Below are positions 40,401 to 49,400 of a DNA stretch of 64,000 bases, piece after piece. The stretch's first letter is position 1; each line of letters starts with the position of its first letter. The DNA comes from Tubulanus polymorphus (lineage: Eukaryota > Animalia > Nemertea). Location: the NCBI RefSeq assembly GCF_964204645.1, contig NC_134029.1, positions 23,554,950 through 23,618,949 on the forward strand, given 5' to 3'. Below the pieces are notes generated by a model. It saw nothing but the letters and a program-made list of their open reading frames with translations. It did not search any database and was not told the DNA's origin. Both the position numbers and the translations under genes were made by a program.

Positions 40401-43400
40401 ACTTTCTTGGGCATATTGTTAACAGCCTGGGTTACCCAAAAGTTGGTTTGAGTTGACTAGGGGATAAATGCTATAGTGACATTATTTGTCCACCAGTTAA
40501 CTCTAAATCTTATCAACGTTTAAGTAAGCAGCTCTTAGGTAATAACTTGGAAACACAATAACTTTCAATTGCTGCATCGCGGGATGCTGAAACTTACAAA
40601 TTTTCAATGCAGCAATAATATCCAGGTTCCATTCATAAATCGACCTAGACGTTCGTTTTTTTTTTTTGTAGAATTATTAATTTTGATTCCGATTTTAACG
40701 TATTTCCGTTGCACGTGTTGTTGTTAAATTATCACGGGGCACCTTCGAGTAACATCCTGTTTTTCACATGACGCATGATTTATAAACAGCCGAGCGTTTC
40801 GTCATCAATCACTTGTTTTAAATCACCACATGTCAACCAAGTCGTCTATGCTGAGCAACTTCTTCCCAATTTGTATTTTGTATATTTCGATGAGTTCGAA
40901 TCGAATCATTCACTGGTGTTTTGTTTATATTTTCAGGGGTTTTATGGCTATGAATGGCGTCGATCCAAATTTGATCTCTAAAGAATGGGTAGCAAATCAT
41001 TACCAGTGGATAGTGTGGAAATTAGCCGCGCAAGAAGTTGCGTTTCCATATCAGTTTGCTGGCAGGTGGGTACTGTACCATGAAAGATGTATGGCCTTCT
41101 AGACCCTTATCCTCCGGGCCCTCTTGACCCTAACCAGATCCTTACTGGATCCTTATTTCTGCGGTTGAATAAGCACATCACAATAGTTTGGACCACTATC
41201 CGGCCACTTCCTATAAATCTCAATCTAAATTTCTCCTCGTAAACTGGATTTATTTCACCGGTCCTAAAAGATTCGGTTTATGGTATTAGGTCTATGACGG
41301 TACTCGCTGATAATCAAACTTCACATTGTCATTTATATGTATCAAATTTATGTTTTCAAAGGCGTTTAACTCCTGATCAAGTGATGCTTGAACTCAAATA
41401 CAGATACGACCGGGAAATTGACCATAGTCACAGGTAGGAAGTTCTACAACTATATTCAAATACTGATTACTGAAATCATAGTTTATTGGTTTATTATTCA
41501 TTATAACAGCTATAGAATAGATTAACGAGTTCATAGATATTGTAAACATGCATACAGAAAATATATATGTATATATATATATATATTATATGAAATAGAG
41601 TTAATTAATATATTGTACTTCAGTCCAATAATTGAGAGGTTTGTTGTAGTTTACCAGTAGATTTAAGCGACATTTTCAGGGGCAGTGTAAAATTTACCAA
41701 AAAACAAAATATGACCCGCAAATATTTCACAACACATAACATCACAACTCAGTAAGGGGCTGTTCATGCATCACTTCTCCCAATGTACATAATGCTTGAA
41801 ATTGCCTAAATGTATTGAAAATTGTGATTTTGCCTTTGAATATTATACGAACAGCCCCTAAACAGTATTACACAACGAGGACCCCGTTTAACTAGACTTT
41901 TAGCCTCCCGTATCAGAAATAAAGTGATGTCTATTCATAAACTCAGTTTGAGTTTAGGATTTATATAAGGAGCGATTTCACAATTCAACATTTGTAGAAT
42001 TTGTGAAATTATGGATCAATTTTATATTGAATATGAGAAGAATCTGGTGGCGTTGTCCTTGTGCACTATCATCCCTGTCGGACCTTCACTTGCCACAAGC
42101 GGAATCCTCGATTGCCACAGTCCATATAGTGACCACATGACTGTTTAATTTTACTCTGATTGATTACTCTGATACTGGTTTACCCAGGATATTCCTTCGA
42201 TTTGTAATTTACAGTTTTTCTTGGCGAGTAGTAACTGTTTATCGGCGTATGACACCGGATTATCGGCTAAACGTAAAACTCTCAGTTTGCGATTGTTCTC
42301 CAGAGCGTTCGCTAGGAACTGATAACCGGTTTTCGATACAGCAGCGTTCCTGCTCAGATCTACTTTCTCCAGACTGTGATTGAAACTCAACGCCTCGCCG
42401 AATGCGTGCATTCCGTTGTCGTCCAGCGATATATCGCTCAAATTCAATTCGATTAAACTGAGGTTTGAGCGTAGACCTTTGACCATCGCGGCGAACGTCA
42501 TTCCTTCCAGTTTTACCGAAGATAGATTCAGCGATTTCAGCGAAACGGTGCGTTCCAGGTACGTGCACAGTTCTTTAGTCGTAGATGACGTCATTACGCA
42601 ATAACTGAGGTTCACTTGTTCGAGATGTTTGGGTAAGTTGCGTACGACGTTATTCACCAGTAAACCGTTTTTACTGTTAACGAATTCGAATCGTTCGACC
42701 GAGTTCATTTTACGACAGGCGTTCTGTAAATCGGCGCAGACTTGCGCGGCGATGTCGTCGTTTGATCGGTCGGACTCGTCGCGTACGCGTATCGATTTTA
42801 TTGATTGGCTACCGTTGAACGCTCGTGCCAAAAACTGTCCGAATAACGTTTCGTAAACCCAGTTAATGGTTAACTGTACGACGTGATCGTTGCCGTTGAT
42901 GACGTCTGCTAGTTCTAATAAAGCGTATTGATTTGATTTACTCGCGTAATCGATGGTCAGATCGATTTCTCGTACGATCGATGAATTCAGTTTGATAACT
43001 CGCGCGAATCCGATCAGAGCGTAAGACGACGTAAACGGTTCGTTTTTGATGATGATTTTCGCCGGTAAGGAATTCGCGACGAGTTCGGTTAATTCGTGGT
43101 TGTCTTTGATTTCGTGCAAACACTCGAGCGACAGTTGATAATCCATTAATTGTCCTTCTTTCCGCTCGGCGCAAAAATCAACTTCATTGACGCTTTGATC
43201 GATACCAGAGTTTACCCCGGAGAGCTCGGTGATACCTCTGTTTACCCCGGAGAGCTCGGTGATACCTCTGTTTACCCCGGAGAGCTCGGTGATACCTCTG
43301 TTTATCCCGGAGAGCTCGGTGATACCTCTGTTTACCCCGGAGAGCTCGGTGATACCTCTGTTTACCCCGGAGAGCTCGGTGAATATGATTTTCAGCAGGT

Positions 43401-46400: not shown

Positions 46401-49400
46401 TACGGAAGTGTTGCAGACGCACGATATTCGCGGCAGTCGTCATATCGTTATCTAACGGTTTACCGGTCCAGCCGTTCGGATACGGCGCGCTCAGGTGACA
46501 GATATTCTTCAACAATACGAACAGTAACGTCGCGTCGAAAGCCTCGGACGTCGTGCGTCTCGAATGTTTCGGGTACAGTTTAAACCAGTATTCCTCGGAT
46601 ATTAAACCCGAACTGCGAAGTCGACGTAGATAAACTTGAAGCTCGGTTTTCGCTAGTTTTTCTTTGAGCACGAGCGGCGGAAATATCTGATTGAAAACCT
46701 GTCGTAACGCGATAGTACCGATATCGACCAATAGGTGGCACAGTTTGGCGTGGCGTTCCCCGCCCAGGTGCAAGTCGACGTTCGTTGACACTTTCTTTTT
46801 TGCCATCGTCTTTTCTTTCTCTTCACCCTGAAAAAAAAGGAATTATAATTATCATTTTTGCCATTTTCATCTCTTTTTCTCCTTAGCCCTGAAATAATTA
46901 ATTGTTTTTGTTACGGTGTCTGAGTATTAAATGTCAAAGCTGCATCGGCGTGATAAAAACAGACTTGTTTCTGGCAGAGATTATCACTATGGAAACTATG
47001 CACCAATCTCTGTAATGACTACAAACCAAAAACGTTTTTATCGTTCCTATCGTTCCTATCGTTCCTATCATTCGTCTCTTGAAATGTGTTGAATTAGTGG
47101 CACAGTGAAGTTCTAGTTTGGCCATTGACTCTGAAACGGTGGGTTTGATGACGATGTCAATTTCTTGTTATTAAACAATCGAATGGTTGTAAATATAACT
47201 GGTTTAAGTTGTGTAAAATATATTTATTGAATTAATATAGAAAGCTATATTTATTCTCGCGGTGAGTTCTATATTAACTTCCATTGTCTACTATTATCGG
47301 CAGCTATGAAATTTTCATTTCGATTTCCCTACTATGACCTCGTTTTGTTTGTAACGCGTTTTACGCGGAATATTTATGAAATTTTCTGAATTCGATGAAT
47401 TTTAAGCGATTCGCGAAAGAGAGACGGAGAATTCATGCGTAGAATTTTACGACATAAAATGAAATATTCATAGAATTCTACTGTTATATTTCCTATCATA
47501 ATATAACGGTAACATTTAAACTGATGCTATGCTGTACCATATTATAGTAGGGCAAATTTTCAAAATTCGAATGTGCCGCCCAAAAAGTCTGGAAATTTTT
47601 TTTGCGAAGAAAATTCTTGAAAGACAAAAAATGAAGAGAGAAAAACCCTTTGGTCCTAAATTTTATGTGTGAGAACCACCAGAACTGGAACGAATGTTCA
47701 AACACTCGCAGCCCTCGCAACCCTCGCAACGCCAATCCCTTCAAAAAATCCTTTTAGAATTGCACTTGTTCATATAAACACAATCTGAGATCTCGGGACT
47801 GGAATAATCATCCTACCTTTTCTTCATCAGACATGAAATAACTGTTTTCCTGTATTGTATTTAATCTATGACCCAAAGCGCTAGAGCTCTCAGAGCTAGT
47901 TACAGACATGTCTTCGATATTCCTATCTCATCCGTAATCTGCTTAGAATATGAAATCTGCTCGTATTATAGTAATTATAAGACCCCCGAGATAAATTCTT
48001 CGCGACATATCACGATTACCTTAGCAATAACTGTTTCACGAGTTCCATGAAAAACGACGGTTTATTCTAGACAAACATAATGTTCACCTATTGAGGCCTA
48101 AAAATGCGCTGAAATAATATTGTTATAGGCAGATTTCATTTATTACATCCATTATATCCTTCAGGTGCATTTCTTATTATCAAAACATTAATAGGTGAAA
48201 GTGCACGCAAACGTAAAGAAACTGATATATTATTCAGATTGCGCTGAATGTCTCAATCGGTATTTACAATCATTTCGTGCAATTCAAGCCTGATTTTTAA
48301 TAGCACGAAAAATGAATGATTAACGTGTGAATTTTATTCTTTTCAGTTCGTCGTTCTTAATCAGATTATATGCGTGTATATATTAGACTGCTTTAGATTT
48401 TCTGCGCAGAATTTGAAGAAAACGTTTAGAAAGATTAGTTTTAAATGTATATCGAAATAGAAGGCTCGAGAACTGACCTGCATCTTGTCGACCACAGTAC
48501 CGGCTATACTCAAACAATGACAGTGATATTGTTAGCGTTAGTTTGTGACTGTCCTCGGTGTCACAAACTACCGGCCATAGTCTCACATGATAAGATAAAC
48601 CCAGTCCGTTTGCTGCCAGTGAACCACAAGCGTAATCTTCTAATGGAAATACTTTCTATTGCGTATTTCCCAAAAATAAATAATCTAAAAGCATTTCATT
48701 GTGCTTTCAATATTTATACGTACTGAATTATTTGATTACTCGAGTATATTTACTATATTTACGTTGGTAGTAGTCAGGTTAATCTGTTTAAACATCTTTC
48801 AGTATAATTCATCAGAGTTTGTAATGAAAAATAAATAGTATATATTGAGACAGGTTCTGTAAACTCTTCTTAAATAAAAGCCTGGCAAATATGTTATACT
48901 ATATGAGGTCAAGTTCTCCAATTATATATTCTTTCAAACAAAAACCTTCTAATTTTCTTAGGAATAATGAAATCTTGAATACATTTCATTCCTAAAGATG
49001 ACTATAGCACTGAAAATAAAACATTCCCAATGGGATACCTTTTTGAATTCTATATCATCAAATATTTAATGATAGATGTTAATTTGTTCAATCCGTTTTA
49101 GATCAGCTTTGAAGAAGATAATGGAGAGGGATGACACGTCGACCAAAACACTGATTCTTTGTGTCTCGAAGATTATTAATTTCCCATCTGAAACAGTGTC
49201 TTCAGTAAGTGATTAGATACTTTATACTGGGTATAAAAACATCGTGGTGTTTTTTGGATAGATTACTTCTATCAATCTTCTGCGGTTTATTTCAAACAAT
49301 TGTCATGTGAAATATGGGTAGAAGTATTCTACGCAAAACATCCAGGGCCATTTGCTCAAAAGCTGGTTAAAGATTTAACAGGTGCATGAATACTGTTTTA

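Follow-up and report, generated by a model that had tools for sequence, protein, structure and literature searches.

Locus and sequence data

The stretch of DNA analysed here is a 64,000-nt window from the nemertean Tubulanus polymorphus, and all positions given below are window coordinates. Its plus strand carries a BRCA2 gene and, interleaved with that gene on the minus strand, lies an intact and expressed gene for a NACHT and leucine-rich repeat (LRR) receptor, hereafter the NLR, which also encodes a HEPN domain and a CARD. Four sequencing runs (X1 to X4), from two samples of one study, cover the window and none of them is recorded as RNA. Contigs of X2 pass over canonical introns, and for this reason we took the run as RNA; its contigs were aligned alone at 98% likeness for the detection of splice joints. 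Five joints were found, one GT..AG in BRCA2 (41063/41360) and four CT..AC, as belong to minus-strand introns. X3 and X4 show cover inside introns and no listed splice joint.

Structure and expression of the NLR gene

The preliminary description of this stretch proposed a spliced minus-strand frame of about 1213 amino acids. Its five exons do join to 3642 nt (1213 amino acids) with no internal stop and four GT-AG introns, but the first exon was wrong. An X2 contig joins 46827 to 50894 across a CT..AC intron and skips 4066 nt that include the predicted 18-nt exon (47817..47834, minus strand); this is the sole RNA contig to cross that exon, which is also missing from the RefSeq protein. Its use as a rare alternative start is conceivable, and nothing was found in support. 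The second, third and fourth of the four predicted junctions are all present in one 1980-nt X2 contig, and the first is replaced by 46827/50894. The corrected gene has an open 3723-nt frame of 1240 amino acids that is letter-for-letter identical to P0015, the RefSeq protein of LOC141905837 from Tubulanus polymorphus (two accessions, one protein). Because this RefSeq model is also of Tubulanus polymorphus and may share underlying data, it is not independent support.

All five exons lie on the minus strand. Exon 1 (50894..51201) is set by the X2 joint at one side and by the contig end at its 5' side; an in-frame ATG at 50992 opens a basic N-terminus of 33 amino acids, identical to that of P0015, and the exon sits within the BRCA2 intron at 49760-53830. 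Intron 1 (46828..50893, 4066 nt) contains two opposite-strand BRCA2 coding exons. Exon 2 (45978..46827) encodes a HEPN domain of the DZIP3/hRUL138 type (Pfam match at about 46243-46668, residues 87-228) followed by a low-complexity linker, and exon 3 (45235..45543), whose junctions are seen in X2, encodes the CARD (about 45284-45502, residues 331-403). Exon 4 (44822..44963, 142 nt) supplies the segment directly before the NACHT domain and has both of its junctions in the 1980-nt contig. Exon 5 (42151..44473) encodes the NACHT domain (about 43969-44409), the HD1, winged-helix (WHD) and HD2 domains and about ten RI-type LRRs (about 42193-42975), and ends in a stop codon at 42151-42153. The stretch 41833..42150 on the same strand is likely the 3' untranslated region, its limit being that of the X2 contigs 41833-42115 and 42087-43219, and the transcription unit extends from about 41833 to at least 51201.

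The 1980-nt contig begins at about HEPN residue 181, covers the CARD and reaches into the NACHT and HD2 domains. The C-terminal part of the HEPN domain, the CARD and the NACHT domain thus share one spliced contig, which removes the concern, raised at the outset, that the HEPN and CARD exons might belong to a transcript other than that of the NACHT exon. The NLR gene is real and expressed. The X2 contigs leave two gaps, at 46386-46575 and at a tandem repeat (43220-43352), each within a single exon. One X1 contig is unbroken from 43967 to 49373 and ties NLR exons to the BRCA2 exon that starts at 49102; a chimeric assembly is thereby made less likely. Within the window there is no second copy of the NLR. 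Among 40 of the 56 rows of sequence differences, eight fall in NLR coding sequence, and all eight are synonymous third-position changes; with their six transitions and two transversions, the chance of this outcome under neutrality is about 4e-5.

Other features were observed in and around the transcription unit. At or just upstream of exon 1 are a 9-nt repeat (51135-51217), 22/44-nt repeats (51348-51518) and a (TC)192 microsatellite (51566-51950), for which a promoter role is possible. At 51045, in the 5' untranslated region, all four runs have one extra base relative to the window, either an assembly error or an allele, and short frames begin at two upstream ATGs (51071 and 51059). On the minus strand at 46794-46895, the exon 2 acceptor is preceded at a distance of about 60 nt by a second acceptor-like stretch, with 79% likeness over 29 nt. 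An X2 contig (46888-47104) has one end at this stretch and may represent an alternative 5' region or a retained intron. Low-depth X2 contigs at 50207-50811, a region intronic for both genes, may come from pre-mRNA or from another transcript. Short high-copy repeats at 49402-49470, 42089-42121, 44581-44772 and 45740-45825, with very high contig depth and many loose ends, are probably mobile-element remnants; two of them lie in NLR introns 4 and 2, and these introns share a 16-nt inverted match. Rfam gave no match in 41400-53900, and NCBIfam gave nothing close to its cut-offs.

The interleaved BRCA2 gene

The identity of the host gene is established by BRC repeats and by helical, OB1, Tower and OB2 exons in collinear order (Pfam and matches to mouse BRCA2, 1MJE). 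The two BRCA2 exons first reported to flank the NLR, one ending at 41433 and the other starting at 49102, do join in frame over a 7668-nt GT-AG intron and map to adjacent residues of mouse BRCA2 in 1MJE. The first of these plus-strand exons (41362..41433) matches 1MJE 191-211 and has its upstream junction in X2; the second (49102..49204) matches 214-244, the OB1 exon after it (49601..49759) matches 262-313, and the next exon (53831..54010) matches 314-373. Four consecutive exons therefore match successive 1MJE segments, so the introns at 41434-49101 (7668 nt) and 49760-53830 (4071 nt) hide no BRCA2 exon. The 41433/49102 junction was not seen in X2, which has no contig over 49102-49204 and whose BRCA2 contig ends at about 41435; this absent cover is uninformative.

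The NLR had been described as nested in a single BRCA2 intron. This holds for exons 2 to 5, but exon 1 is separated from them by two BRCA2 exons and occupies the BRCA2 intron at 49760-53830. With NLR exon 1 at 50894, and with the BRCA2 exons 49102..49204 and 49601..49759 inside NLR intron 1, the genes are therefore interleaved and not simply nested. The BRCA2 introns that hold parts of the NLR measure 7668 and 4071 nt, compared with 296 and 396 nt for the neighbouring introns that were measured. GC content at third codon positions (GC3) is 0.51-0.60 in the NLR exons and 0.34 in three BRCA2 stretches, a contrast compatible with a separate origin of the NLR. The observed/expected ratio of CpG gave no clean separation (1.5-1.9 in NLR exons, 1.2-1.7 in other exons) and was dropped as a criterion. 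A full-text literature search, whose coverage leaves out most subscription journals, found no paper on a nested or overlapping gene in BRCA2.

The BRCA2 gene has features of its own. In an array at 36011-37883 on the plus strand, a 120-nt unit encoding one BRC repeat recurs 15.6 times almost unchanged (96% matches), and the open frame holds 18 BRC repeats by Pfam and 19 by motif, a recent expansion. One X1 contig lacks 522 nt of a BRCA2 intron (39871-40392), likely a deletion haplotype. The other genes of the window, as matched by Pfam in the stretches 1339-1764, 7605-8594, 17713-19123, 22850-24155 and 60003-63470, are two frames for rhodopsin-family G protein-coupled receptors, a Ras-family GTPase, a sulfotransferase and an arginine methyltransferase. 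The last of these stands tail-to-tail with BRCA2, and its frame at 61270-62802 has a long repetitive Gln/Ser/Thr-rich stretch.

Domain architecture of the NLR

The domain order HEPN-CARD-NACHT-LRR that had been read from the sequence is borne out, Pfam confirming HEPN_DZIP3, CARD and NACHT, and PDB matches together with a structural model confirming the LRRs. The CARD of exon 3 scores 37.4 bits against a cut-off of 23.9 (E 2.6e-9, Pfam), and its best PDB match, the CARD of Apaf-1, is weak (E 0.016). The NACHT domain of exon 5 scores 65.5 bits against a cut-off of 26.7 (E 2.6e-17, Pfam), and the best PDB match of this region is NLRC4 (E 1.5e-12). Its Walker A and Walker B motifs are intact, and both agree with those of 10 aligned relatives. 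The LRRs fall short of the Pfam cut-off (LRR_6, 22.6 bits, cut-off 23.4) and are recognised by their matches to RI-type repeats in PDB (best E 2.8e-14, exon-5 protein). An AlphaFold2 model of the NLR, built from an 11-sequence alignment (mean pLDDT 66), has about ten beta-alpha units in the LRR block, with pLDDT mostly 70-93. The top fold matches of this model are full-length NLRs, including oocyte-lattice NLRPs, at 15-17% identity. An in-frame tandem repeat of a 30-nt unit (43210..43382, minus strand; 5.8 copies, 98% matches) is modelled with low confidence and is probably a disordered linker before the LRRs. By sequence features, then, the protein is a member of the NLR family and of the DZIP3-HEPN domain family: it has the NACHT domain, Walker A and B motifs, an LRR array and a CARD, and it lacks the winged-helix His, which is common in the family and not strictly defining.

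The HEPN_DZIP3 match in exon 2 is strong, with 98.6 bits against a cut-off of 27 (E 3.5e-29) over positions 4-142 of the 144 in the PF18738 profile. The domain had first been taken for an effector RNase that attacks RNA, and this view is weakened by the lack of an Rx4-6H motif in the Pfam-matched residues 87-228; the sole match to the motif within residues 56-240 starts at 58, outside that span. The degenerate site we take to be at Arg176-Lys177...Trp181, placed by the family pattern and not by alignment. The His of the motif is reported to be essential in the HEPN RNases tested (PMC3710099), and in pearl oyster the motif is kept in 194 of 202 DZIP3-HEPN proteins (PMC9646362). The HEPN region has no sequence match in PDB, and a single-sequence model of it (pLDDT 47) is too poor to place individual residues such as His173. 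Judged on its sequence, the HEPN domain is likely non-cutting, and an RNase effector is doubtful.

Relatives and known systems

Word-based protein searches returned 14, 1 and 8 matches among 6068, 2192 and 7990 candidates, and these were the NLR itself, P0016 and distant NACHT proteins (21-29%). No close paralog appeared in these searches, whose reliance on exact shared words means that paralogs can escape them. Metagenome and viral contigs were scanned as well, and no relative emerged. In the ESM Atlas the nearest cluster (score 0.95) carries NACHT at 100%, LRR_6 at 94% and HEPN_DZIP3 at 94%. The closest relative found is P0016, an unnamed protein of 806 amino acids from ENA, with 27% identity over NACHT-HD2 and 33% over the LRRs (E 3.6e-76). 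Like the NLR, it has no winged-helix His, and it has an insert at about the same place as the tandem repeat, although the two inserts are unrelated; unlike the NLR, P0016 consists of the NACHT-LRR part only.

The architecture itself is already known and is not novel. Fusions of animal DZIP3/hRUL138 HEPN domains to CARD, NACHT, DEATH and LRR were tabulated in 2013 (PMC3710099), and HEPN-NLRs have been reported in nine invertebrate taxa (PMC8662601), in corals (PMC8260672) and in pearl oyster (PMC9646362). The same set of four domains is reported for the only NLR of Aplysia californica (LOC101849611; PMC9334734); the likeness is one of reported domain set alone, and there the death-fold domain is called 'Death-like' and not CARD. 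The HEPN_DZIP3-NACHT(-LRR) proteins of corals, bivalves, brachiopods and amphioxus (PMC8260672, PMC9646362, PMC8662601, PMC13012124) share with the NLR an N-terminal DZIP3/hRUL138 HEPN domain fused to NACHT. Those families are often expanded in tandem, and the pearl-oyster members mostly keep Rx4-6H, whereas the NLR is without this motif, has the extra CARD and has no close paralog in the word-based searches. Vertebrate NLRC4 has the same CARD-NACHT-HD1-WHD-HD2-LRR order, for which no orthology is claimed; the NLR differs in its additional N-terminal HEPN domain, its winged-helix Asn and its inserted tandem repeat, and identity in the fold alignments is 15-17%.

In the counts of Dataset S5 of PMC13012124, HEPN-NACHT-LRR is zero in 46 spiralian proteomes. 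Here the LRRs fall below the Pfam cut-off, and therefore that zero may partly be a detection gap. The same dataset gives CARD-NACHT and HEPN-NACHT counts of 1/1 in Owenia, 1/1 in Patinopecten, 11/10 in Lingula and 3/1 in Lineus; should both counts cover one set of proteins, the HEPN-CARD-NACHT architecture would be an old one among spiralians.

Proposed function and alternatives

We consider that the gene is an intact, spliced antisense HEPN-CARD-NACHT-LRR gene which probably encodes an NLRC4-like, CARD-signalling intracellular receptor with a likely non-cutting HEPN domain, and that its position is likely incidental; taken as a whole, we give this reading a probability of about 0.6. If the receptor works as known NLRs do, its NACHT domain would be kept closed by the LRRs until a trigger permits nucleotide exchange and wheel-like oligomerisation, and a caspase or adaptor that itself bears a CARD would then be recruited by the clustered CARDs. 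The HEPN domain would bind RNA or dimerise and would not act as an RNase.

As to the position, exons 2 to 5 of the NLR were likely inserted antisense into a BRCA2 intron, and the first exon and promoter were likely gained afterwards in the next large BRCA2 intron, an order of events that we infer. The opposite orientation would keep the splice signals of the two genes apart. Nested antisense gene pairs of other animals similarly have a gene in an opposite-strand intron with no exon overlap (PMC3814207, PMC8467205); the NLR and BRCA2 differ from them in that each gene has exons in an intron of the other, and in that the host is BRCA2. In Drosophila nearly 10% of genes are in nested structures, those on the same strand being rarer than expected, and nested and host genes are less co-expressed than neighbouring genes (PMC3814207).

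A number of points weigh against this reading. The RNA support comes from a single run of a single study, as contigs only, and the single full-length transcript is one that we infer, since the X2 contigs leave 46386-46575 and the tandem repeat unbridged. The column of the winged-helix His of NLRC4 holds Asn774 here, compared with His in nine of 10 aligned relatives and Cys in the closest (P0016). The sensor-1 column holds Lys, compared with Arg in the 10 other aligned proteins, although NLRC4 is also without Arg there in the PDB alignment. The two residues suggest a regulation unlike the textbook ADP lock. His173, three residues before Arg176, could be an alternative catalytic residue of the HEPN domain. 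The GC3 contrast may merely reflect the unusual amino-acid composition of BRCA2, and the view that the overlap is incidental rests on base rates.

The winged-helix substitution is the starting point of the alternative that survives best, which we regard as possible and still clearly improbable. Here the protein would be a helper or scaffold in place of a sensor. Lack of the winged-helix His would leave it ready to oligomerise, and it would pass on signals received from a second NACHT protein, in the manner of NLRC4 with NAIP, or else have a scaffold role outside immunity. Altering the winged-helix His of NLRC4 (H443) is reported to promote oligomerisation (PMC8283967), which fits Asn774 at this column, and oocyte-lattice NLRPs are among the top fold matches, but matches at 15-17% identity cannot separate NLR subtypes. 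The lack of a close paralog sets the NLR apart from the expanded sensor families of oyster and coral (PMC9646362, PMC8260672), yet word-based searches can miss paralogs.

A regulatory role for the overlap is unlikely in our judgement. On this account NLR transcription would run head-on over 9.4 kb of BRCA2 in which two OB1-region exons lie. Through colliding polymerases or antisense pairing, induction of the NLR would then leave BRCA2 mRNA reduced or truncated and tie immune or death signalling to recombination repair. The overlap is deeper than first described, NLR intron 1 being antisense to two BRCA2 exons, and transcriptional interference between nested genes is reported in Drosophila and mammals (PMC8467205); some interference from head-on transcription over about 9.4 kb is physically plausible. 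However, interference that is a mere by-product would not amount to a function under selection, nested pairs are usually without co-regulation (PMC3814207), and X2 contains spliced contigs from both genes. This last observation also argues, at the level of the sample, against the mutual exclusion of NLR and BRCA2 transcription that had been suggested for the locus, and is uninformative at the level of the cell. An incidental overlap remains the likely explanation.

Nor do we find it probable, by a similar and slightly stronger judgement, that the HEPN domain is an active RNase. Its catalysis would run through His173 and Arg176 and be switched on by NACHT oligomerisation, with RNA cleavage and CARD signalling as the two outputs. 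The nearly complete match to the HEPN_DZIP3 profile is in its favour, as is the report that some HEPN families have their catalytic His N-terminal to the motif (PMC3710099), but the matched span lacks the Rx4-6H that pearl-oyster members so generally keep (PMC9646362). More speculative still, and in our view quite improbable, is a combined proposal in which the NLR belongs to an old, low-copy spiralian subfamily that has lost both the HEPN catalytic His and the ADP-locking His, its HEPN domain would be an RNA sensor that fires a CARD death signal, and its induction, with transcription head-on through the exons of the BRCA2 DNA-binding domain, would throttle BRCA2 as a switch between repair and death. 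Decay of a duplicate or an error of assembly, as the recent tandem repeat interrupting the coding sequence and several altered signature residues might suggest, is a very improbable explanation of the locus and already largely refuted by the open 3723-nt frame, the spliced RNA contigs, the exclusively synonymous coding differences listed and the unbroken X1 contig.

Implications for nemertean NLRs

The interleaving of the NLR with BRCA2 would be of significance only through conservation or an effect on BRCA2 output. In a search of the literature on Tubulanus polymorphus, with most subscription journals outside its coverage, no NLR features in the titles of 12 of the 13 papers returned, and a 2024 survey reports NLRs as absent from Nemertea (PMC11508797). 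An expressed NLR in Tubulanus polymorphus contradicts the absence reported there and provides a concrete expressed NACHT-LRR receptor in Nemertea. As a natural HEPN-NLR without the catalytic motif, it would help to test whether the HEPN-NLRs of invertebrates sense RNA or cut it.

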